Origin: an uncultured Spirochaetales bacterium
GTDB lineage: Bacteria; Spirochaetota; Spirochaetia; JAFGXN01
Direction: 5' to 3'
DNA: 64,000 nucleotides
Assembly: GCA_949289575.1 (NCBI GenBank)
Contig: CASEOG010000002.1
Location: forward strand, 92,590 to 156,589
This document shows positions 4,440-16,205 of the stretch, in pieces (the first letter of the stretch is position 1; each line of letters starts with the position of its first letter). The notes beneath the pieces are model-generated. The model was given only the letters and a program-made list of their open reading frames with translations, did not search any database and was not told the origin of the DNA. The position numbers were made by a program, and so were the translations under genes.

Positions 4440-5550
4440 CCGTGCGGCGCGGCGGCGCGCCGCGATTTTTACCGCCGCTTTTTCCGTTTATCTGGGAGCG
4501 GTCGAGACGGTTCTGCCTCATCCGATTCCGTTTCTGCATTACGGGTTGGGCAATATTCCGTTGCTGATTGCCGTACCGCAGCTGCCTTTCGGCTGGTTTC
4601 TGGCGGCGGTTGCCGTCAAACTGCTCGGGCAGGGGCTGCTCGGCGGACTGCTGCTTTCGCCGCTGATGGCGGTTTCCGCAGCCGGGTCGCTGACGGCCGC
4701 TTTGGCGATGAAGGGGTTTTACCGCCTTTTCGGCCGCTTCTGTACGCTGACCGGGGTCAGTGTGCTGGCGGCCTTTGTGTCCGATGCGGTGCGGCTGGCG
4801 GCGGCGGCTCTGTTTCTCGGTTCGGCCGGGGCCGCGGCGGTGGCGCTGCCTTTTTTTCTCTGCGGCTGGGGCTGTTCTCTGCTGACGGGGGCGGCCGCCC
4901 GCCGCATGCTGCCGCACTGTCCGTTGGCGGATGTGCCGGCGGCCGCGGGCGGTGCGTTGCGGCGGCCGGCGGAAGCACGGGTTTCCGTTCCGCGGAATTC
5001 CGTTCGCAGCCGTTTGGGTTCCGTTTTGCGGTCGGTGCCGTTTGCGGCGGCCGTTGCGGGAACGCTGTCCGGCAGCGCGGCGCTTTGTCTGCTGCTGTTT
5101 GCGGCGACGGCGGTGACGGCGGCGGTCTGCCGGCTGCGCAACCGGTGGGGGATGACGGCGAGTGCATTCGTTTGCATTGTTCTGTTTGCATTGATGGCGC
5201 CGGACGGGAAGCTGCTGGCGGAATGGGGACCGTTGCGGATAACGGCCGGTGCGCTCGAGGCCGGTTTGTACCGGGCCGCTTCGTTTTGTGCGCTGGTTTT
5301 GGCGTCGCGGTTGGCGCTGATGCGCGGTGTGCCCGCGTTTGTGAGGCGGTTTCGGGCGGCGGGTGAGTTTTTTGTCTATTTCGAGGCGTTTTGGGCGCTT
5401 TCGGTTGATGCCGGGCGGATTTTGTCCCGTCCCTACCTGAAAGAGGTGAGCGGTGTATTGGCGGCCGGTTCGCCGGCCGGTGCCGGTGCGGCTGCCGGTA
5501 ACGGTGCGGTTACCGGTTCGAAGGCGGAAGCGGAAGCGTCGAGACGGTAA
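4417..5550 (+). CDS. Gx transporter family membrane protein with a long Ala/Gly-rich C-terminal extension
   Basis: Polytopic membrane protein immediately following and overlapping the NusG-domain-II gene, which is the canonical pairing. ATG at 4417 lies inside ORF 4363..5550. The C-terminal half is low complexity (Ala/Gly/Arg-rich). Confidence 0.5.
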   Translation: MPMRPLTDRAARRRAAIFTAAFSVYLGAVETVLPHPIPFLHYGLGNIPLLIAVPQLPFGWFLAAVAVKLLGQGLLGGLLLSPLMAVSAAGSLTAALAMKGFYRLFGRFCTLTGVSVLAAFVSDAVRLAAAALFLGSAGAAAVALPFFLCGWGCSLLTGAAARRMLPHCPLADVPAAAGGALRRPAEARVSVPRNSVRSRLGSVLRSVPFAAAVAGTLSGSAALCLLLFAATAVTAAVCRLRNRWGMTASAFVCIVLFALMAPDGKLLAEWGPLRITAGALEAGLYRAASFCALVLASRLALMRGVPAFVRRFRAAGEFFVYFEAFWALSVDAGRILSRPYLKEVSGVLAAGSPAGAGAAAGNGAVTGSKAEAEASRR

Positions 5551-6535
5551 ACGGGCTGTCGGCGGTCGGGGAGAAGGCGCCGGCCAGGTTGCCGGTGACG
5601 ATCAGCCGGTTGTCCCGTGTTATCCATATCACGCCGACGTCGGGGTTGCGCCGCTGCCATTCGATTCCTTTTGTTTCTCCCATCACGAAGAGGGCGGTCG
5701 AAAGGGCGTCGGTTTCGGCGCCGCTGCGTTGCGAGACGACGGTCACCGAACGCAGGCCGCTGTCGGCCGGTTTCCCGGTCGCCGGGTCGAGAATATGGTG
5801 GTATTTGACGCCGTTTTCGTAAAAGAATTTCTGATAATCGCCCGAGGTGGAAAGGCTCCAGTCTCCCGAAAGGGTGAGGGTGGCGGCTTCGGCGGGGCCG
5901 ACGGTTAGCGGAGAGCGGATCGAGATGATCCACGGCGTTCCGTCCGGTTTGGTGCCGACGGTTTGAATATTGCCGCCCAGGTCGATGAGAGCCGTTGCGC
6001 CCGCCTCTTCACAGATTTTTTTCACCGCATCCGAAGCGTATCCTTTGCCGACGGCGCCGAAATCGAAGGCGCACTGCCGGCTTTTCAGGGTGACGGTGTG
6101 CCGCTCGGAGTCGTAGACGGCGGCCGAAAGCCGCGCCGCCGGTAACAGCCGGGCAATCTCCTCGTCTGCCGGCAGCCGCGGTGCTTCGCCGGAAAAGCCC
6201 CACAACGCAGTCAGCCGCCCCAAAACGGGGGAAAAGGCGCCGTCGGTTTCGGCGGCGGTTTTCAGCGAAACCGCAATCAGGTCGCCCGTAAGCGGAGAAA
6301 CCGTCTGCTGCCGGCCGGCATTGACGGCCGATACTTCGCTTTGCGGATCGACGGCACTGATTTTCCGTTCGATTTCCCGAATGGCCTCAAAGCAGTTACC
6401 GGCAACGGCTGTTTCGGACTTCCCGTAAAATCTGACCGTGCAGACGGTTCCCATCAGCCATTCGGTGTATGCCGGACTGCCGAACGGGCAGCCTGTCAGC
6501 ACGGCGGCGCAAAGGGTCAGCAGAATTTTTTTCAT
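5510..6535 (-). CDS. apbE: FAD:protein FMN transferase (ApbE family) lipoprotein
   Basis: Lipoprotein signal (LTGC), FDFGAVGKGYASD and SGDYQKFF…HHILDPATGKP motifs of ApbE. Confidence 0.85.
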   Translation of the reverse strand: MKKILLTLCAAVLTGCPFGSPAYTEWLMGTVCTVRFYGKSETAVAGNCFEAIREIERKISAVDPQSEVSAVNAGRQQTVSPLTGDLIAVSLKTAAETDGAFSPVLGRLTALWGFSGEAPRLPADEEIARLLPAARLSAAVYDSERHTVTLKSRQCAFDFGAVGKGYASDAVKKICEEAGATALIDLGGNIQTVGTKPDGTPWIISIRSPLTVGPAEAATLTLSGDWSLSTSGDYQKFFYENGVKYHHILDPATGKPADSGLRSVTVVSQRSGAETDALSTALFVMGETKGIEWQRRNPDVGVIWITRDNRLIVTGNLAGAFSPTADSPFTVSTLPLPPSNR

Positions 6536-6541
6536 GTGCGG

Positions 6542-8440
6542 TTACAGTGCGTACCGTTCGGACGCTTCTCCGATTTCGTTCAGCGTCTGCCGGGAGTTGT
6601 TCAGATCCCGAATCATCGATTCGACCGATTTGTTCAGGCGCTCCGTCATCTCCTTTTCGGTGGCGAAGAGCTGCTGCATCCGGTCGGAAAGATCGAGAAT
6701 CAGGGTGATAGTCTCTTCGACATTGATAGCCGCTTCTTTCTGTGTCTGGAACTGTTCTTTGATATTCCGGACCGAAGAGACAACCGATTCGATGGCGGTC
6801 ATTGTGTCGCGGGCCGCCTCTTCTTCTTCGTTCATGGCGTCGGAGATTGTGGCAATCAGGTCGCTGTTTTCACCGATTCCTTTTCGGATGCCTTCAAAGG
6901 TTTTGGTAATCGAAGTGATTGTCTGATTTCCGATCTGTATCCATTCCGTCATTTCGCCGATGTGGTTTTCGATTTTTTTGGCACTTTTTGTCGAGGCATC
7001 GGCAAGAGCGCGCACGCTTTGGGCAACCAGCGCAAATCCCGATCCGGACGCACCGGCATGGGCCGCTTCGATAGAGGCGTTCATGGAAAGCAGGTTTGTC
7101 TGTCCCGCAATCCGCTGAATAACAGCCAGAATTTCGGAAACCGATTGAGCCGCATCCTGAATCTCTTCGATCGCTTTGCGCGCTTCTTCAATGGCTTTGT
7201 TTCCGGTCGCACTGTAATTCTTCAGCTTGTCGGACAATTGGGCCGCCGTTCGGATGGTCTGGATAATTCCGGCAATGGAGGAGGACATCTGACCGATAGA
7301 GACAGAGGTCTGTTCGACCATTTCTTCCTGAGCCGCAATCTGTTCTTCCATCATTTTGGCCGTGGTGTTCAGATTGTGGACGTTTTTGTCGGAACGGGAG
7401 AGAAAGGTGATCTGACTGTTCGATTCCGCCGATTCGCAGGAGGCTGCGGTGATTTCCGCAAGCGGTGTTTTGATATTTTCGTAAATCACTCCGGTTTTGT
7501 CGAGAGACTCATGCAGGGCGGCTGTTTCGCTCCGGAACTCTTCGGCTACTGTCTGCGTATTTTCCGTCAAAAGATTGATGGCTTCGCATAAATCGCCGAA
7601 CTCATCGAGTGTAATGATGTTCATTCGGGAGAGGCCGTGGCCGGGAGTTTCGATTTCGTTGAGCAGTGCGACGGTCCGTCCGACTTTCTGGTACTGTAAA
7701 TTGCGGAAAACGCGGAGAAACAGAAAAAGCAGAGTCAGAATGAGGATTCCGGAAGCCGCTCCCGTCAGGGCAAAAAGGGCCGGGTCGGCTTCGGCGGGAT
7801 TGATGATGGCTCTTTCGGCAAAAAAGGAGCTTCCCGACAAAGTAAATGTGGCCGTAATCAGAAAGGCCTGAAGCAGACCGAACATCAGGACAAATCCGAT
7901 ACTGAAATTTTTTCTGACATGAAGATGGGAATATTTCTTCACCGTCGAAATATCGGATATCTTTCCGATACCGGCTTTGAAAAAGAACAGGATAAGAAAA
8001 ACGCTGATTCCCCATAAAATCAGGGAGATGACCATATCCATTACAAACCGCGAGACAAAAATGAAAAGGGTTTCCGGTTCGGGTGTAAAAAAGAATCCGG
8101 TTATTCGCGGCAGAACAATCATGATAAAAGAGGTCAGCCAGATGCAGAGCGTCAGTCCCTTCATCGATTTCAGGAAAGTCATCAGTTTCAGATCTTCCGG
8201 CATCGGATTGGTGTCGGTACAGGTTTCCCCGATGCGCCGCGAAAAGTAAACGGAGGGAATCAGAAAAATCAGATACCCCGACACGGCAATCAGCGTGCTT
8301 TGTATCAGGTGCGGCCACGGAAGGATGTGTGTATTTCGAAATGTCATGAGAAAAAAACTGAGTTCGTTAAATATAAAAATAAAGAACAGAAGAGGGGAAA
8401 CAGAGCGTAAATAAAGTGCGGTCATTTTGCTGCGACTCAT
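6542..8440 (-). CDS. Methyl-accepting chemotaxis protein with a polytopic (multi-TM) N-terminal sensor region
   Basis: Highly conserved MCP signalling-domain hairpin ([31 protein letters not shown]). N-terminus has about 6-8 predicted TM helices. Confidence 0.85.
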
Positions 8441-10323
8441 TGATTTTCCTCCTGAAGGGAATTGTGTTGGAAGATTTGGACAGACTGAAGCAGGTCTCCG
8501 GCGGTTGCTCTGTCCGATTCGATATTGACAATCGCGCTGCGGGCCAGTTCCGATGCTTTTTCGAGTTCTTTTTGCTGTCTCCCGATTGTGGTGCCGATGA
8601 GATCCGCATGGGCCACGATTTCATTCATAATTTTTTTGGCGTTTTGTGTATACTGGTTCTGTTTCTCGGCAAACGAAGAAATCTGTTCGACCGATTTGAC
8701 GATGGCGAAAGTCGATTCCAGAGTCGATTGTGTCGATTTTTGCTGGGAGTTCATGCTGTCCGCAATCCGGTTCATCAGTTCGAAGTTCTCTCCGATACCG
8801 TTGACAATATCGTTGAAAGCGTTTCCGGCGGCCGTAATCGCTTCGACGCCGTGGTTGACCTTTTCGATCATCATTTCGATGTGGGTTTCGATTTCTTTTG
8901 CGTTGCGGTTGGAAAGGCTCGAAAGGGATCGAACCTCGTCGGCCACAATGGCAAATCCTCGTCCGGTATCACCCGCATGGGCCGCTTCGATCGAAGCGTT
9001 CATCGAGAGGAGGTTTGTCTGTTTGGCAATTTTCTGAATCGACCGGAGAATCTGCTGTATGTCGAGAGAGGATGTCTGAATCGATTTAATCGTGTCGGTT
9101 GTCCGGCTCAGGATGCGGTGTCCCGATTCGCTGCTCTCTTTCAGCATTGTGGAAACGATGTTGGCCTGGCGGGCCATTTCGGCAATCGAAGCCACGGCGG
9201 AACTGATTTCGGAAACCGAAGCCGAACTCTGCTGTATCGACTGGTTTTGGAAAGAAACCTGCTGAATCATATCCATGGCACCGGAAACCAGCGAGTTGAC
9301 TTCGGTATCGGTCAGGTCGATAACTTCTTTCTGACTCAGGGAGGATTCGCGAATCTGATCTAACGATTCGGAGATGGTGTTGATGGTCTCGACGGCGCTT
9401 TCTCCTTTGCGGACCAGTTCCTCTTTTTCTTCGATAAGCTGCGTCGATTCTTTTTCCAGACGGAAAAGGGAATTCTGAAGACGGTTCATAAATCCGTTGA
9501 TTTTGTCTTCGAGTTCGATCATATCGGCGGTAAAGCAGTATGCGAGACGCGGAGAGAAATCCCGTGTTTTTTTCCGGTCGAGAACCCAGCCCGACAGTTT
9601 TCCCGTTTGGCGGCGTAAATCGAGGCAGAGGGTAAAAACAGGAATACAGGTCAGAATGAGGGCCGCCAGTGTGCCGGTGACAGCCTGATTCAGAAAAAAT
9701 CCGAATCCGTACAGAGGATCGATGATTTCCTGCATCGGGATGAAGAAGGTTACGGCAGCCAGCGGCGTAAACCAGATCAGGGCCGTTCCCGACAGGAAAA
9801 ACCTGTAGAGCCATTTGAGGGAGGATTCGAATCCTTTGGTTTTCTTATGAGGGGTCGTTTCGTTTTCGTCCGTTGTGCGGTATTTGCAGATTTTGGGAAT
9901 ATTGTAAAGATTCGAGTAATACATTAAAAGACCGCTCATACAGGCCAGGATCGGCATTGACGGGAACGGTACGGGCCCGTCGCCGGAGACGGTCATCGCT
10001 GTTTCGGCAATCACGGCAAACAGAGGGTAAAGAATCAGGTGAACGGAGAGATTGACGCGGTAGAGAACCTTTCTGAAGGCAGTGTGTCTTTGGGCGTCGT
10101 TTCGGGAGCCTTTGCCTCCGGATGTAAAGGCCGTGACGGCGGGGAGCATCAGGAGCAGAGCCGCGCTGCAGACAATTACGGCAAAAATAACCGTTGTTGA
10201 CAGGAAGGAGGCCGATTCGCCGACCGAAGCTGTTTCGTAGAGTCTGCCGAAAAAAGAATAGAAAGATGTGCCGAGAATGGCGGTCAGTACAAAATGGACG
10301 GTAAACTTAAAGTATGTACTCAT
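8437..10323 (-). CDS. Methyl-accepting chemotaxis protein (second, tandem) with a multi-TM N-terminal region
   Basis: MCP signature [31 protein letters not shown]. Overlaps the downstream MCP by 4 nt. Confidence 0.85.
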
Positions 10324-10388
10324 GAAAATACTCCCTCTCTCTTCTATCGGAAAGAAAAAGTATATAATTTACAGAAAAGAAAAAGAAA

Positions 10389-10460
10389 AGCCACTCATGG
10401 GATTTGAACCCACGACCTACGCATTACGAGTGCGTTGCTCTACCCCTGAGCTAAAGTGGC
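10389..10460 (-). tRNA. tRNA-Thr (anticodon CGT)
   Basis: Reverse complement GCCACTTTAGCTCAGGGGTAGAGCAACGCACTCGTAATGCGTAGGTCGTGGGTTCAAATCCCATGAGTGGCT folds as a cloverleaf: 7-bp acceptor, D-arm GCTC/GAGC, anticodon stem ACGCA/TGCGT with loop CTCGTAA, T-arm GTGGG-TTCAAAT-CCCAT. CCA is not encoded. Confidence 0.85.
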
Positions 10461-10514
10461 GTACGGTCTTATTATTTCCTATATCGCGGGAAATGTCAAG
10501 GGGGTGTTATCCGA

Positions 10515-10543
10515 TTGAAACGGATGTGTTTGTATGATATAAT
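10515..10543 (+). promoter_or_regulatory. Near-consensus sigma70 promoter (TTGAAA-17 nt-TATAAT) immediately upstream of the permease gene
   Basis: Hexamers at 10515-10520 and 10538-10543. The annotated ATG at 10552 is only 9 nt past the -10, implying a leaderless or very short-leader transcript. Confidence 0.45.
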
Positions 10544-10551
10544 ATGAAAAT

Positions 10552-11871
10552 ATGAATAAAATAACCGGTAAAATCGATCTGTTTTTTCACATCGGAGAAA
10601 GAGGCTCCTCGTTTTCGAAAGAAATCATCGGCGGAATCACGACTTTCCTGACAATGTCTTATATTCTGGCCGTCAATCCGATGATTTTGGGCGGGGCGGA
10701 GGGACCCGGTCCCGGCGCCGTATTTACGGCAACGGTTTTATCGGCGGCGGTGGCGACCGTTTTTATGGCGCTGGCGGCCAACCTTCCGATTGCGCTGGCT
10801 TCCGGCATGGGGATTAATGCCTTTTTTGCGCAGACGGTTGTCGTTTCAATGGGTTACAGTTGGGAAACGGCTCTGACGGCGGTTTTTCTGGAGGGTATCG
10901 TTTTTATTCTGATTTCCTTTTTCCGGATACGGGAAATGATTGCCTCTTCTCTTCCTGCCGGTTTGAAGCGGGCAATTGCTGTCGGTATCGGACTTTTTAT
11001 CACTCTGGTCGGGCTGTCGAATGCGGGTGTCGTGGTGGGCGGCAACGGCTCTGTTTTGGGGCTGGGGGAATTCAACGGAACGTTTCTGGCGACGATTATC
11101 GGACTGACGATAACGCTGCTGCTTTATTCGCTGCGGGTGCCCGGCAGTCTTTTAATCGGTATATTTGCGACAGCGGTTATCGGTATTCCGCTGAAAACAA
11201 CCGTTATCCCCGAATCGTTTTCTCCGGTATCCGTGCCGCAGGCGCCGCTCTGGTTTGCCTTCGATTTTTCAGGCGTGCTGTCGTTCGAGTTCTTTATTGT
11301 GTTTGTTACCTTTCTGTTTGTCGATATGTTCGATACGGTCGGCACATTTGTCGGCGTGGCACAGGAAGCGGGTCTCGCCGGCAAAGACGGAACCGTCCCG
11401 AAAATCAGACAGGCTTTTCTGGCGGATGCGGTCGGAACCGTTTGCGGTGCGGTGCTCGGAACGTCGACGGTAACCAGTTATATGGAGAGTACGGCCGGTA
11501 TTGCGGCGGGGGCACGGACAGGACTGGCGTCGCTGGTAACCGCATTGCTGTTTCTCGTGGCACTTTTTTTCGGTCCGCTGTTTCTTCTGGTACCGTCGGC
11601 TGCGGTGGCGCCCGCCTTGGTGCTGGTCGGCTTCCTGATGATGAAAAATGTCCGGTTTATTGATTTTGATGATCCGACGGAAGGAATCCCTTCGTTTTTG
11701 TGTCTGGCGGCGATTCCGTTTACATACAGTATTTCTCAGGGAATTGTGTGGGGTGTTCTTTCGTATGTTCTTTTGAAAGCAGTAACGGGACGGAGAAAAG
11801 AGGTGTCGCCGCTTTCATGGGGGTTGGCGCTCTTTTTTCTGACCTATGTTCTTGTGAAGAGTTTTGTATGA
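10552..11871 (+). CDS. NCS2/AzgA-family nucleobase (adenine/guanine/hypoxanthine-type) permease
   Basis: TTFLTMSYILAVNPMILGG and the overall 12-13 TM pattern characteristic of AzgA/PbuG-type purine permeases. Confidence 0.8.
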   Translation: MNKITGKIDLFFHIGERGSSFSKEIIGGITTFLTMSYILAVNPMILGGAEGPGPGAVFTATVLSAAVATVFMALAANLPIALASGMGINAFFAQTVVVSMGYSWETALTAVFLEGIVFILISFFRIREMIASSLPAGLKRAIAVGIGLFITLVGLSNAGVVVGGNGSVLGLGEFNGTFLATIIGLTITLLLYSLRVPGSLLIGIFATAVIGIPLKTTVIPESFSPVSVPQAPLWFAFDFSGVLSFEFFIVFVTFLFVDMFDTVGTFVGVAQEAGLAGKDGTVPKIRQAFLADAVGTVCGAVLGTSTVTSYMESTAGIAAGARTGLASLVTALLFLVALFFGPLFLLVPSAAVAPALVLVGFLMMKNVRFIDFDDPTEGIPSFLCLAAIPFTYSISQGIVWGVLSYVLLKAVTGRRKEVSPLSWGLALFFLTYVLVKSFV

Positions 11872-13070
11872 TGACGGCAAAAGCCTTTACGGCATACGTC
11901 GAAGAACGGTATCCGCTGACATTTCAGGAAAAGAAACGGCTGATGATGATGGCCGGCGATCTGGAGCAGTGGGGCGAGGATCCGGCCCGTTTCTGGCATC
12001 CCGAGGCGGCGGGTCAGACGACCGGTAAGGCGGCTGTCAAAAAAATTATTGCCGGTTATACGGCCGGTTACGAGGCTCTCCGCGGTGCCGAGAAAGAGTA
12101 CGGCGATCCGCCGCCTTATACGGCGGTGCCGCCCGAATGTGTTACGGAGCGGAGAGTTTCCCGCATTGCCGGGCGCTGCCCCGTTTTTTCGCCCAAAACG
12201 CGTTGCTGCGGACTGCTGACGCTGGATGCTGTTATGCAGTGCGGTTTCGACTGCAGCTACTGTTCGATACAGTCGTTTTATCACGGGAATCGGGTTGTTT
12301 TTCGTTCCGATTTAAAAGAGCGGCTGGCGGAATGGGAACAGGAGCTCGATCCGCACGAATGGTACCATGTCGGGACGGGACAGTCTTCCGATTCGCTGAT
12401 GTGGGGCAATCGGGAAGGCGTTCTGGAAACCGTTTTGGAGTTTGCCGGGCGTCATCCGAACGTTCTGTTGGAACTGAAAACAAAAAGCAGTCGGGTTGCC
12501 GAACTGTGCCGGATGAAAGTTCCGCCGAATGTTTTTGCGACATGGAGTCTGAATACGCCGACCGTTATCTCCCACGAGGAGCATCTGACGGCCGGACTGG
12601 AAGCCCGGCTGGAAGCGGCCCGGCGGGCAGCCGATGCCGGTATCCGTGTCGGATTTCATTTTCATCCGATTGTTTACTACCGCGGGTGGCAGGGTGAATA
12701 CGAGTCGGCGGTGCGGCAGCTGACACGGCTGTTTTCGCCGGAAGAAGCGGTGACCGTGTCGATGGGAACACTGACATTTATCAAACCGGTTATGCGCAGA
12801 ATACGTGAGCGGGGATTGCGTACAAAAATTCTGCAAATGGAGACGGAAGAAATAGCCGGTAAATTTTCGTATCCCTATGAGCGGAAAAAAGAGCTGTTTC
12901 GGACCGTGTACGACTGTTTTCCGCGCGGGTGGAAAGAGGCGGTCTTTTTCTATCTTTGCATGGAAGACGGACGGCTGTGGAATGATGTGTTCGGTTTCGA
13001 ATATCAAAATAACGACGATTTCGAGCGGGCTATGAAAGAGTCGTACAGAAAAAAACTTTGGAGAGGATAA
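11868..13070 (+). CDS. Radical SAM protein, spore-photoproduct-lyase (SPL/COG1533 DNA-repair-photolyase-like) family
   Basis: CGFDCSYC (CxxxCxxC) cluster motif plus LELKTKS and TVSMGTLTF blocks resembling SplB. ATG at 11868 forms an ATGATGA overlap with the permease stop, indicating translational coupling. Confidence 0.65.
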   Translation: MMTAKAFTAYVEERYPLTFQEKKRLMMMAGDLEQWGEDPARFWHPEAAGQTTGKAAVKKIIAGYTAGYEALRGAEKEYGDPPPYTAVPPECVTERRVSRIAGRCPVFSPKTRCCGLLTLDAVMQCGFDCSYCSIQSFYHGNRVVFRSDLKERLAEWEQELDPHEWYHVGTGQSSDSLMWGNREGVLETVLEFAGRHPNVLLELKTKSSRVAELCRMKVPPNVFATWSLNTPTVISHEEHLTAGLEARLEAARRAADAGIRVGFHFHPIVYYRGWQGEYESAVRQLTRLFSPEEAVTVSMGTLTFIKPVMRRIRERGLRTKILQMETEEIAGKFSYPYERKKELFRTVYDCFPRGWKEAVFFYLCMEDGRLWNDVFGFEYQNNDDFERAMKESYRKKLWRG

Positions 13071-13071
13071 A

Positions 13072-14580
13072 ATGGGCGACGTCAAAGTAAGAATTTCCAA
13101 AAGAGGACCGTTTCAGCTGGAACTGAAGCTGACTTATCCGATTGCGCGGAAGAAAAAAGTCGAAACCAATATGTATGATTTCACCGGCTATTTTTTTATT
13201 CCGTCCCAGTTGGGAATCAATCCTTCCACATATTCTTCCGAAGACTTTTTTGATGATTATTTTTCTTACACGCGTTTCGGTATTCTCGATTTTTCGCTGG
13301 ACGATTTGCTTAACCATCATATTAAAACCAACCCTCTCTGGAGAATCGATTCTTTTGTTTCCGAAGATCACTTCGAGAAAGGGCAGAATCGCGAAGCGAT
13401 CATTTACGAGCTGAAAACATTTTACAATATTTTTCATGACAGAATGGATGTTCTCAAATCGGAATTCCGTAAACTGAAGCACAAGGTGGACGAAGATGAT
13501 TATCATCCTATTGAGATTTTTACCAACTACCGCGATAAGATTACAAAAGTGTTTGGGGTATTCCGCAAATACAGGGATTTTTTCTACGACGAACGTCAGG
13601 ATGAAGAACTGAAATGGAGCTACCGCTGGGTTGATGAAGGAATCAGTCTCGATTACGAAAAACTGCTCTGGTACGTTTACGATACGGCGCAAATCGGAAG
13701 GGAAGAAGAGCTGGTGTCGATTTGCGCGCACGAGATCGAAGAAAATATCGATTACAGAAAATCGCAGGAATATCTTCATTATACATATAAATACAACAAC
13801 AAAAAAAACGAGTCGTTTATCTTCCGTGAACACAGTATCCGCAAATGGGCGGAGTTGAATCTGCACATGTCGCGAACCGATTCCCATAATCCGAAACAGG
13901 TCAGTCTGCTTCTGATTTCCGTTTCAACCGGAATAGCGATGTTTATTTTTCTGTTGCTGACGTTGCTGATTGTCAACAAGTTTATGAATCAGCCGGCATT
14001 GTGGATTCTCAGCGGTGTTCTTGCCTATGTGCTGAGGGACCAGATTAAAGACAACTTAAAAGAATATTCCAAAAAGATGTCGCCGATGTTCGCGGCCGAC
14101 CGGGAACAGCATCTGATTGACCCGAAGAGCCGCAGACGCAGCGGATTCAGCCGTGAATGGATGTCGTTTACCCGAATGGACCGTCTGCCGGCTCCGATTA
14201 GGGAATTGCGGGAACGCGATAAAAACAAACTGGATAAGTATCTGCTGTCCGAGAACATTATCCGCTTCGAAAAACGGACCAAATTCCGGAGCCGCCGTCT
14301 GACGCAGAACCATCCGCGCCTTCCGAGTGTCACCGATATACTCCGGTTTGATTTGCGGCGCTGTTTTTATAAAATGGATACGGCTGTCGAGGATTTGTTT
14401 GTGCTGAATGACGACAACCGCCTGGAAACGGTTCAGGCAAAGCGTGTTTATCACATCGGCCTGATTTTTTCGATTACCGAAAAAGAAAGCGGGATGAAAC
14501 AGTCGGTTTACAATGATTACCGGTTCAGAATTGTCGCTTCCGGAGAAGAAATCCTGAGAATCGAAAGAGTCAAAGGGTAA
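13072..14580 (+). CDS. Hypothetical membrane protein (502 aa, two central TM helices), AT-rich orphan
   Basis: Long ORF with a GGAGAGGA RBS inside the end of the upstream gene and 2-nt spacing. No recognisable domain. Two hydrophobic helices (LLLISVSTGIAMFIFLLLTLLIV, ALWILSGVLAYVL). Composition is visibly more AT-rich than flanking genes. Confidence 0.55.
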   Translation: MGDVKVRISKRGPFQLELKLTYPIARKKKVETNMYDFTGYFFIPSQLGINPSTYSSEDFFDDYFSYTRFGILDFSLDDLLNHHIKTNPLWRIDSFVSEDHFEKGQNREAIIYELKTFYNIFHDRMDVLKSEFRKLKHKVDEDDYHPIEIFTNYRDKITKVFGVFRKYRDFFYDERQDEELKWSYRWVDEGISLDYEKLLWYVYDTAQIGREEELVSICAHEIEENIDYRKSQEYLHYTYKYNNKKNESFIFREHSIRKWAELNLHMSRTDSHNPKQVSLLLISVSTGIAMFIFLLLTLLIVNKFMNQPALWILSGVLAYVLRDQIKDNLKEYSKKMSPMFAADREQHLIDPKSRRRSGFSREWMSFTRMDRLPAPIRELRERDKNKLDKYLLSENIIRFEKRTKFRSRRLTQNHPRLPSVTDILRFDLRRCFYKMDTAVEDLFVLNDDNRLETVQAKRVYHIGLIFSITEKESGMKQSVYNDYRFRIVASGEEILRIERVKG

Positions 14581-14646: not shown

Positions 14647-15399
14647 GTGAACGAAACAAAAATTCCTTTATTGTTTGCCCACAGAGGCGGAAAAACAGAT
14701 GCTCCCGAGAATACGTTGGCGGCATTCCGGTGGGTGCTGGAAAATAAGATTCCGGCAATCGAACTGGATGTTCACCGTTGCGCAACCGGAGAGCTGGTTG
14801 TGATTCATGATTTTCATACGAAACGAATTTGCGGAACGGATTACAGTGTCGAAGAGACTCCTTTTATCGTTTTGCGTTCGCTCGACGCCGGGTCTTCGTT
14901 TGATGCCCGCTTTGCCGGAGAAAGAATACCGCTGCTTGAAGAGGTTATCGATCTGCTCGGCGACCGTGTTTTTTACGATATCGAAATCAAAACGCCCCAT
15001 TTTTTCGGCGACAGCAAATTGACGGATGATGTTCTGAAAATGGTCGGGGAAAAGGGGATTGCCCATTGCAGTATGATTTCCTCTTTTAATCCCTTTGTCG
15101 TACGGCGTGTCCGAAAGAAGGGATTTCCGTTGACGGCGGTCATTTTTGCGGAAGACGATGATGTTCCGTTTGTGTTTAAACGGGGACAGGGGTGGTATAT
15201 TGCCCGTTCCACACATCTCAAACCGGGGCGGCAGCTGATTGAGTCGGGACGGATGTGCAAAGGACTTAAAAAAAGAAATTTGCCCTTAATGACATGGACG
15301 GTTAACGATGCCAGAGAGGCTTTGCGGCTGAAAAACGCAGGTGTTGTCGGAATCTGTACCAACTGTCCGCTCACATTAAGGGATGCCGGGATTTGCTGA
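14647..15399 (+). CDS. Glycerophosphodiester phosphodiesterase (GDPD family)
   Basis: LLFAHRGG…ENT, ELDVH and IEIK motifs. GTG start preceded by AGGAG. Confidence 0.8.
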   Translation: MNETKIPLLFAHRGGKTDAPENTLAAFRWVLENKIPAIELDVHRCATGELVVIHDFHTKRICGTDYSVEETPFIVLRSLDAGSSFDARFAGERIPLLEEVIDLLGDRVFYDIEIKTPHFFGDSKLTDDVLKMVGEKGIAHCSMISSFNPFVVRRVRKKGFPLTAVIFAEDDDVPFVFKRGQGWYIARSTHLKPGRQLIESGRMCKGLKKRNLPLMTWTVNDAREALRLKNAGVVGICTNCPLTLRDAGIC

Positions 15400-16205
15400 T
15401 GAAAAGAAGCGGGTTCGGTCTTTTGCTTATGCTGCTGACGGCAGCTGTTTCGTTCGCCTATGACGATGACGGCGATGTTGTCGAGTTTATCGTAGATGAG
15501 GACGGTAATTTTGTCCGCGAATATCCGTTTTTGGAAGAAGAAAACGACCGTGATTCGGACGCGGATGCCGGCAGAGATGTATCCGTCGAATCCGTGCAGA
15601 TGAGTCCCGCAAAGCGTCCTGCTGCCAGAACATCGTTAACGGTCAGTCTCTTTTACCCCTTTTATATGGGAACGGGAGTCGATTTTGTCGAAGATTATGC
15701 TTTCGACCCGAATTACGGAGGAACACCCGTTGCCGTCAAACTGAACGGCGGCGTTGACATCGAACTGCGTTGGGTTATTCTGAAGTATCTTCTTGTCGGC
15801 GGCGGTTTTTCATGGAGCGGAACTTTTCTGTTCGATGATACCAACAATTTTCTCGATACCAGTAATTCCTCGATGAAAGTGCTGACGCTTCGGGCTCTGG
15901 TCGGCGGAATTTTTCCGTTGGCTTCATGGGTTTCCGTTTTCGGCGGTATTCAGGGCGGTTTTCTCCAACTGCTGGAATCGGGGTATCTGAAAGCCATTAA
16001 TGCCAAGTACGATGAAATCGCGCTGCCGTGCGGAATGGTGGCCCCCTTCTTCGGTTTTGACTTTATTTTGCAGGAAGGTTTTTCGCTTTCCCTGAAGGCC
16101 GATTTTACGGCAGGATTTTCTTCGCCGAATAATCTGCTGAACCGGAATCGGGTCGAAACCGTTATGTATCCGGGAATTTACCTCGGATTCGGAATGGTTT
16201 TTTAA
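15393..16205 (+). CDS. Hypothetical secreted protein (signal peptide, acidic N-terminal segment, probable beta-rich C-terminus)
   Basis: N-terminal signal peptide (LLLMLLTAAVSFA). Gly/aromatic-rich alternating pattern, ends in an aromatic residue. No family recognised. Confidence 0.5.
   Translation: MLMKRSGFGLLLMLLTAAVSFAYDDDGDVVEFIVDEDGNFVREYPFLEEENDRDSDADAGRDVSVESVQMSPAKRPAARTSLTVSLFYPFYMGTGVDFVEDYAFDPNYGGTPVAVKLNGGVDIELRWVILKYLLVGGGFSWSGTFLFDDTNNFLDTSNSSMKVLTLRALVGGIFPLASWVSVFGGIQGGFLQLLESGYLKAINAKYDEIALPCGMVAPFFGFDFILQEGFSLSLKADFTAGFSSPNNLLNRNRVETVMYPGIYLGFGMVF

Follow-up and report, generated by a model that had tools for sequence, protein, structure and literature searches.

A purine permease gene probably inserted once ahead of a gene for an SPL-fold radical SAM protein in a narrow spirochaete clade

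Introduction

In a 64,000-nucleotide stretch of DNA from an uncultured Spirochaetales bacterium (GenBank assembly GCA_949289575.1, contig CASEOG010000002.1, positions 92,590 to 156,589; here called the window), the stop codon of a nucleobase permease gene and the start codon of a gene for a radical S-adenosylmethionine (SAM) protein of the spore photoproduct lyase (SPL) family share the letters ATGATGA. Does so close a junction mean that the two proteins serve one pathway? A first-pass annotation, made from the sequence of the window, proposed that it does, with the radical SAM protein (hereafter rSAM) processing an imported modified or damaged base or carrying out another radical reaction on a purine or pyrimidine. 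Our analysis points elsewhere. We consider it likely that the permease gene was inserted once, and recently, ahead of the rSAM gene, and that rSAM is not an SplB enzyme; with more reserve, and judging from other family members, we suggest that the reaction of the family yields an adenosine-derived product or by-product cleaved by a nucleosidase.

Results

A single permease insertion in one spirochaete clade

The elements at the core of the locus, in window coordinates, are:

10389..10460, minus strand: tRNA-Thr gene (anticodon CGT; ARAGORN; Rfam 66 bits), divergent from the operon and its conserved left border
10471..10499, minus strand: promoter-like site of the tRNA gene, TTGACA-17-AATAAT, 11/12 consensus matches
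10515..10543, plus strand: near-consensus sigma-70-type promoter with an extended -10, TTGAAA-17-TGaTATAAT
10552..11871, plus strand: AzgA/AGZA-type NCS2 purine-base permease, 439 aa (PF00860; AZG1/AZG2)
11868..11874, plus strand: ATGATGA stop/start junction (sequence reading)
11868..13070, plus strand: SPL-fold radical SAM protein (rSAM), 400 aa (PF20903; TIGR04070; AlphaFold2 (AF2) model; PDB fold match)

We compared this arrangement with related loci, in a census drawn from metagenomic contigs, of which many are short; a scan of a genome collection with one protein as query gave two loci. The permease-rSAM pair, with its overlap, recurs in loci of the same species (L003-L006), in L001, whose rSAM is 82% identical to that of the window, and in L097-L099, whose permease is 88% identical. 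The adjacency is limited to one narrow clade, with an rSAM identity of at least about 80%. In L002 (rSAM 73% identical) two genes for methyl-accepting chemotaxis proteins (MCPs), the tRNA-Thr gene, rSAM at 6001, a 502-aa gene and a glycerophosphodiester phosphodiesterase (GDPD) gene follow one another with no permease among them. The contig of L007 (rSAM 64% identical) begins inside the tRNA gene and continues with the promoter, rSAM, a 505-aa gene, GDPD, a 263-aa gene, EIIA and M20, again with no permease; the sequenced flanks of L002 and L007 contain none. Farther out, an NCS2 permease is present in none of 82 distant rSAM loci (phmmer, E<=1e-5), a set made up of 80 metagenomic loci (rSAM 46-55% identical, up to 8 kb of flank), Desulfotalea and one Spirochaetota metagenome-assembled genome (MAG).

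An approximate neighbor-joining (NJ) tree of rSAM has the form (L007,(L002,((window,L003),(L001,P0003)))). One permease insertion explains this pattern, because the alternative requires two losses. The distribution shows what appears to be a single, recent insertion of the permease gene into a pre-existing promoter-rSAM junction, and shows the pairing not to be a conserved feature of the rSAM family. The idea that coupling to base uptake marks a shared pathway acting on an imported base is not supported: the pair occurs in one narrow clade and is absent from L002, L007 and all 82 distant loci. The adjacency does extend beyond the species of this genome, but its confinement to one clade comes close to uniqueness.

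One promoter and a coupled start

The operon promoter matches the consensus at 11 of 12 positions in addition to its extended -10, with the -35 hexamer TTGAAA at 10515-10520 and the -10 hexamer at 10538-10543. The permease ATG follows the -10 hexamer after 8 nt, with no Shine-Dalgarno sequence, and an in-frame stop at 10540-10542 rules out an earlier start; these spacings predict an mRNA with little or no leader. Searching positions 10200-13300 against Rfam (E<=1, gathering threshold) returned the tRNA-Thr alone and no riboswitch, purine or other. The near-consensus promoter, the near absence of a leader and the lack of a purine riboswitch described in the first-pass annotation were all borne out.

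An intergenic alignment of four lineages (window, L001, L002 and L007), with the tRNA gene and both promoters in register, shows that the operon promoter is conserved and that the TGTCAA block of the tRNA promoter is invariant. In the window and in L001 this conserved promoter drives the permease gene; in L002 and L007 it drives rSAM, with no gene between them. The distance from the -10 hexamer to the ATG is 8 nt in the window (permease; 10538-10554), 7 nt in L001 (permease; 4660-4690) and 8 nt in L007 (rSAM; 120-140), each lacking a Shine-Dalgarno sequence, and 46 nt with a GGAG in L002 (5950-6003), so that sister lineages feed leaderless and leadered first genes from the same promoter.

At the junction, the permease stop TGA (11869-11871) overlaps the rSAM gene by 4 nt if translation begins at the ATG at 11868, or by 1 nt if it begins at the ATG at 11871. 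Homologues of rSAM start at the equivalent Met, and the ATGA overlap is retained in L001 and L097. Direct reading of the sequence confirmed the shared ATGATGA, and we found no promoter-like site on the plus strand within the 3' part of the permease gene. The overlap, the shared promoter and this absence together support the predicted co-transcription of permease and rSAM from one promoter and a stop/start-coupled translation of rSAM, as first proposed. Overlaps of 4 nt are found at about 10 of the approximately 41 same-strand open reading frame (ORF) junctions in the 64-kb window, a count that rests on crude ORF calls and includes the upstream chemoreceptor pair. Such overlaps are common here; the one at this junction shows co-expression and says little about function.

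An ordinary purine permease

PF00860 (Xan_ur_permease) matches residues 23-397 of the permease with E=1.2e-41, and the protein is full-length. Its nearest solved structures are the plant adenine/guanine permeases AZG1 (2e-63) and AZG2 (4e-47). By these matches it is a full-length NCS2/AzgA-type purine carrier and ordinary as a protein. Bacterial AzgA/AGZA permeases include PbuG, GhxP and AdeP. The closest relatives beyond the clade are NCS2 permeases of Treponema/Treponemataceae (60-63% identity), whose genes sit elsewhere in the genome, convergent with thrC. In T. brennaborense (CP002696.1, L095/L096 5001-6955) the permease gene is followed by that of a 166-aa deaminase with a cytidine deaminase (CDA) fold and faces thrC; this looks like the usual treponeme context of the permease and fits ordinary purine salvage.

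An SPL-fold protein with a different active site

rSAM scores 63.9 bits with the Pfam SPL family (PF20903; threshold 27) and 73.9 bits with the SplB equivalog TIGR04070, whose cutoff is 400. The [4Fe-4S] cluster motif CX3CX2C is formed by C125, C129 and C132 and is followed by a conserved Gln. We built an AF2 model with 38 homologues (predicted local distance difference test, pLDDT, 89.8). The top Foldseek matches of this model are all SPL entries (best 4fhc, E ~1e-13, template modelling (TM) scores 0.55/0.65, 22% identity); lipoyl synthase and further radical SAM folds of a generic kind rank below them. The family assignment made earlier is confirmed insofar as rSAM falls within Pfam SPL and has SPL as its nearest fold; an identity with SplB itself is contradicted by a score far below the equivalog cutoff.

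We mapped active-site residues through a HMMER alignment to the G. thermodenitrificans SPL (chain numbering minus 27), taking roles from the literature (PMC3467042). In SPL, K174 and S195 bind SAM, K309 contacts a phosphate of the lesion, C140 donates hydrogen, Y98 relays the radical, R273 contacts the lesion, and R304 and Y305 form the tip of a hairpin (PMC3467042). The corresponding residues are:

SPL K174: K206 in rSAM, kept
SPL S195: S227 in rSAM, kept
SPL K309: K332 in rSAM, kept
SPL C140: Q172 in rSAM, replaced
SPL Y98: S133 in rSAM, replaced
SPL R273: T303 in rSAM, replaced
SPL R304/Y305: none in rSAM, lost through a 7-residue deletion

All positions in this list are invariant across 118 distinct sequences of the rSAM family, as are four additional cysteines, C104, C113, C114 and C364. 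The equivalent of SPL Tyr96 is kept as Y131. In clostridial SPL the donor Cys (the Cys77 position) lies about 13 residues ahead of the cluster motif (PMC3467042); C113 and C114, either of which may be its counterpart, lie 11-12 residues ahead of it, in a region that phmmer and profile alignments to SPL do not reach, as they stop at the motif. Approximately residues 1-75 form an N-terminal helical domain, and no Pfam domain matches the N-terminal 110 residues, even at E<=10.

By sequence and predicted fold, these comparisons show that rSAM is a radical SAM protein of the SPL fold whose active site differs from that of SPL; on the same grounds it is an uncharacterised relative of spore-photoproduct lyase and not the true enzyme. 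The earlier suggestion that an SPL-family enzyme here does something other than repair the spore photoproduct gains support, as the substrate and relay positions are occupied by other, equally invariant residues.

A widespread family of anaerobes

A word-indexed search returned more than 3,940 relatives of rSAM, and among 1.84 billion representatives searched exhaustively, 1,574 matched at E<=1e-3 and 278 at E<=1e-30. The family proper consists of proteins of ~400-440 aa, with about 50% identity between Spirochaetota and Desulfobacterota (Desulfoluna, Desulfotalea, Desulfobulbus). Its hosts are anaerobes of Desulfobacterota, Spirochaetota and Fidelibacterota, together with a clade of Campylobacterota-like appearance. 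"DNA photolyase" and "spore photoproduct lyase" are the names that relatives bear in public records. More distant is a second tier of SPL-like proteins, 31-35% identical and 350-390 aa long (P0322-P0398, among them Fidelibacter multiformis WP_400167030.1); these share C104, C114 and C364 in a CPx...CC...CME tri-cysteine signature, and have Glu at position 172 and Arg at 303. Some of them carry an unassigned N-terminal extension of ~170-400 aa, which does not resemble a nucleosidase. The literature that we searched holds general discussions of SPL and SplB-like proteins, with no description of the rSAM subfamily or of its fusion to a nucleosidase.

Nucleosidase and SDR genes in other lineages

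Seven fusion representatives (50% clustering level) of 598-689 aa carry an extra N-terminal domain of ~190-235 aa ahead of rSAM: P0253, P0259, P0261/P0415, P0267, P0271, P0273 and P0274. P0253 matches Pfam PNP_UDP_1. The fusions come from Spirochaeta lutea (WP_156104624.1; P0267), a Fidelibacterota MAG protein and proteins encoded on 3-4 Mb contigs. A profile of the fusion domains identified a stand-alone nucleosidase of 175-190 aa, on the same strand and upstream of rSAM, in 8 of the 82 distant loci (L035, L045, L067, L068, L071, L078, L080 and L081), and in three of these eight its gene overlaps the rSAM start. The stand-alone proteins match PNP_UDP_1 above threshold, and the futalosine hydrolase, MTA/SAH nucleosidase and HpnG models below threshold. 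Among PDB relatives, 22 of 24 matches are MTA/SAH nucleosidases, and the catalytic EME and SD motifs align.

One subfamily of short-chain dehydrogenases/reductases (SDR) accompanies rSAM in 9 of the 82 loci, variously upstream or downstream. Four gene orders illustrate the association:

nucleosidase-x-SDR-rSAM-CDP-OH transferase-MOSC
nucleosidase-SDR-LpxR-rSAM-CDP-OH transferase
deoC-deoB-(minus-strand gene)-nucleosidase-rSAM-ArsP-ArsP-SDR
trmD-rplS-nucleosidase-rSAM-(minus-strand gene)-VTT-SDR

On the NJ tree the nucleosidase link appears in three places, namely a deep clade of six fusions, P0259 alone, and the large Campylobacterota-like clade. No permease is present in any nucleosidase-bearing locus. 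Of the purine link drawn in the first-pass annotation, the imported base finds no counterpart, and what stands is a tie to adenosine-derived products in relatives, seen through nucleosidase fusion and adjacency.

Neighbourhoods of rSAM across the family

When all ORFs up to 5 kb from rSAM were clustered, no neighbour family turned up in more than 10 loci. Among the genes directly flanking rSAM (66 upstream and 71 downstream, 137 in all) we counted 164 Pfam families, none of them more than 7 times and Xan_ur_permease not at all; the commonest are NnrS (7), GGDEF (6), HSP20 (6), SDR (5) and CDP-alcohol phosphatidyltransferase (5). DNA repair is not a theme of this census, in which UDG, DUF4130 and ImuB are all absent. 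We rejected a family-wide conserved gene neighbour, as nothing occurs in more than ~10% of loci, and the gene appears, from its neighbourhoods, to be essentially stand-alone.

Several neighbours are membrane- or lipid-related. A CDP-alcohol phosphatidyltransferase gene overlaps the rSAM stop in 5 loci, and LpxR, VTT/DedA-like and NnrS genes also lie nearby; such sites include L080 9188-9748, L035 4726-5283 and 2501-3457, L078 10091-10690 and, two genes downstream of rSAM in the window, GDPD. These neighbours may be a coincidence or may hint at a lipid-related substrate. A single DNA-metabolism context was seen, in about 4 related loci: in the Spirochaetota MAG JBNJDX010000001.1 (L009 2473-8199), rSAM is divergent from uvrC and near lexA, holA and thyX. 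This is probably lineage synteny.

Flanking genes in the window

Two further genes of the co-directional cluster follow rSAM:

13072..14580, plus strand: 502-aa orphan protein with two transmembrane helices, downstream of rSAM, with a GGAG Shine-Dalgarno sequence
14647..15399, plus strand: glycerophosphodiester phosphodiesterase (GDPD; PF03009 at 2.3e-29), the next gene of the cluster

The 502-aa gene starts 1 nt past the rSAM stop. Its product is present in L001, L002 and L007, and it accompanies rSAM within the window's spirochaete clade only. Across this clade it is more conserved than rSAM (75% vs 64% for the L007 lineage), and its gene is AT-rich, with 40-43% GC vs 52-57% in neighbouring genes. 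It has only 8 homologues among 5.8 billion proteins, and its Myxococcota relatives do not adjoin an rSAM. We found no Pfam match, and its AF2 model (pLDDT 80) has no PDB fold match at E<0.2. Given the 8 homologues and the Myxococcota relatives that are not adjacent to rSAM, we rejected it as a conserved functional partner of rSAM.

GDPD is syntenic in L001, L002 and L007, and its stop is overlapped by the gene of a 270-aa protein (window 15393-16205) with a weak, sub-threshold match to the outer-membrane beta-barrel family PF13505 (E=0.002). On the other side of the tRNA gene, two tandem MCP genes (632 and 628 aa) with a 4-nt overlap occupy window positions 6542-10323 on the minus strand; the pair is kept upstream of the tRNA in L001, L002 and L097. 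A role in anti-phage defence was rejected, as PADLOC returned no match for the permease, rSAM or the 502-aa protein.

Discussion

A proposed history and reaction

We propose that an AzgA/NCS2 housekeeping permease gene was inserted once, in a recent ancestor of a narrow spirochaete clade, between a strong promoter divergent from tRNA-Thr and an SPL-fold rSAM gene that elsewhere stands alone. After the insertion both genes would be expressed from the same near-leaderless start, and rSAM, now without a leader of its own, would be translated through ATGA coupling. Because the permease was inserted, the coupling would be a consequence of gene order and not the mark of a shared pathway.

The enzyme itself would bind a [4Fe-4S] cluster and SAM, as SPL does, and would work without SPL's Cys140 hydrogen donor, relay residues and lesion-flipping hairpin tip, in the presence of four extra invariant cysteines. 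It may use SAM stoichiometrically, with an adenosine-derived product or by-product cut to adenine by an MTAN/MqnB/HpnG-like nucleosidase. Stoichiometric use of SAM and release of adenine are probably features of the family, as judged from its other members and not from the window. The chemistry that we favour would be of the MqnE/HpnH type: addition of a 5'-deoxyadenosyl radical, removal of adenine, and reduction of the ribosyl product by the SDR. In both known partnerships of a radical SAM enzyme with a nucleosidase, MqnE with MTAN/MqnB and HpnH with HpnG, the 5'-deoxyadenosyl radical is added to an olefin and adenine is then removed (PMC13459092). With modest confidence we prefer such an adenosyl-radical addition to a simple clearance of 5'-deoxyadenosine, which seems less likely.

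Several points weigh against this proposal. The promoter, the leaderless start and the coupling are predicted from consensus and conservation. The mechanism is borrowed from relatives 45-55% identical to the window protein; the 64-kb window and its close relatives encode neither the nucleosidase nor the SDR, and about 85-90% of family members have no nucleosidase nearby. To our knowledge every radical SAM enzyme makes 5'-deoxyadenosine, and the nucleosidase may do no more than lift product inhibition. A nucleic-acid substrate would fit the match to the SPL fold, the retained equivalent of K309 and the one uvrC/lexA/thyX neighbourhood. Finally, the permease carries purine bases and the nucleosidase frees adenine, which leaves room for a functional link between the two genes.

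Alternative explanations

A purine could connect the two proteins if the permease moved, for example, adenine tied to the rSAM reaction and had been recruited in place of the nucleosidase. The rSAM family is tied to adenine-releasing nucleosidases by fusion and neighbourhood, the inserted gene is specifically an adenine/guanine/hypoxanthine-type permease, and the ATGA overlap is maintained across the clade. Against such a pairing, the adjacency is found in a single narrow clade, the nucleosidase-bearing loci have no permease, and the Treponema orthologues of this ordinary permease are located elsewhere. AzgA-type carriers are uptake systems, and adenine produced inside the cell requires no transporter. 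We find this pairing improbable, and more generally give little credence to a functional permease-rSAM link, of which adenine is the only thread, because uptake carriers are unneeded for internal adenine and the adjacency arose once. A bolder extension would make rSAM a third class of adenosyl-radical-adding radical SAM enzyme, whose product the nucleosidase and SDR turn into a C5-polyol-extended metabolite, perhaps a lipid, with the permease recruited for adenine turnover; this we regard as a distinctly long shot. The idea of a lipid or head-group product comes from the CDP-alcohol phosphatidyltransferase, LpxR and VTT neighbours in other loci and, in the window, from GDPD and the membrane orphan.

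Alternatively, rSAM could repair or modify nucleic acid in the manner of SPL or phage M6 gp53, taking a hydrogen from a modified base or from a DNA or RNA lesion other than the spore photoproduct, with the nucleosidase clearing 5'-deoxyadenosine and the permease unrelated. SPL is its best fold and sequence match, the equivalents of K174, S195 and the phosphate-binding K309 are invariant, identity of ~50% across phyla suggests a conserved substrate, and one clade lies beside uvrC, lexA, holA and thyX. Other SplB-like proteins occur in SOS/ImuB-C or NreA contexts (PMC3765255, PMC4929162), and M6 gp53, which has the SPL fold, isomerises a DNA base adduct (PMC8989533). However, the hairpin tip is deleted, R273, C140 and Y98 are replaced, the neighbour census has no DNA-repair theme, those neighbours that do recur (CDP-alcohol phosphatidyltransferase, LpxR, VTT, NnrS) relate to membranes or lipids, and a dedicated fused nucleosidase and an SDR would be unusual for low-flux repair; on balance a nucleic-acid substrate seems rather unlikely. 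It would be very surprising if rSAM were a genuine SplB that repairs UV thymine dimers, as the names "spore photoproduct lyase" and "DNA photolyase" of its relatives and the above-threshold Pfam SPL match might suggest. Its 73.9 bits against a TIGR04070 cutoff of 400, the replaced Cys140, Tyr98 and Arg273, the absent hairpin tip, and the extra N-terminal domain and cysteine set all argue against that identity, as do its hosts in Spirochaetota, Desulfobacterota and Fidelibacterota, phyla in which we know of no endospore formers.

Significance and comparison with known systems

If a single insertion accounts for the gene pair, the pair is an ordinary by-product of genome rearrangement, and it carries a caution: a 4-nt overlap shows co-expression, not a shared pathway. 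The interest of the locus lies in the enzyme family, which goes by the name of SPL or DNA photolyase in public records yet is without the residues that define that activity. Were the adenosyl-addition chemistry to hold, rSAM would add to the very few radical SAM reactions of this kind and would point to an unknown metabolite; were it a repair enzyme instead, it would define a lesion not due to UV that anaerobes mend by radical chemistry. The fusion proteins, such as that of Spirochaeta lutea (WP_156104624.1), are ready-made constructs for testing the adenosyl-addition chemistry.

Compared with the known AzgA/AGZA purine permeases, the window permease stands apart only in its genomic position and leaderless-type start. 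SplB (PDB 4FHC) shares with rSAM a partial TIM-barrel radical SAM fold, the CX3CX2C motif with its Gln, and the Lys174 and Ser195 equivalents. The beta-hairpin that bears the Lys309 equivalent is also common to both, but in rSAM it is 7 residues shorter and without Arg304 and Tyr305. rSAM differs further in its N-terminal helical domain of ~75 aa, its four extra invariant Cys and its non-sporulating anaerobic hosts. Phage M6 gp53 is an SPL-like radical SAM enzyme that isomerises glycinyl-thymidine in DNA (PMC8989533). It combines the SPL fold with a chemistry other than that on the photoproduct and shows how versatile the fold is; we compared it with the rSAM family by description only. It is encoded in a phage hypermodification cluster with a kinase and a PLP (pyridoxal phosphate) enzyme, whereas the rSAM family is cellular, mostly stand-alone and without such partners.

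Other SplB-like groups of non-sporeformers are linked to SOS/ImuB-C/DUF4130 (PMC3765255) or, in archaea, to NreA (PMC4929162); these are uncharacterised too, but are defined by DNA-repair neighbours that do not recur here. In MqnE/MqnB and HpnH/HpnG, a radical SAM enzyme and a nucleosidase follow the same two-enzyme logic that we see in other lineages of the rSAM family, where the nucleosidase is of the PNP_UDP_1 type. In sequence, rSAM is not specifically related to either MqnE or HpnH, MqnE being only a generic, low-ranking fold match, and the neighbourhood has no menaquinone or hopanoid genes.

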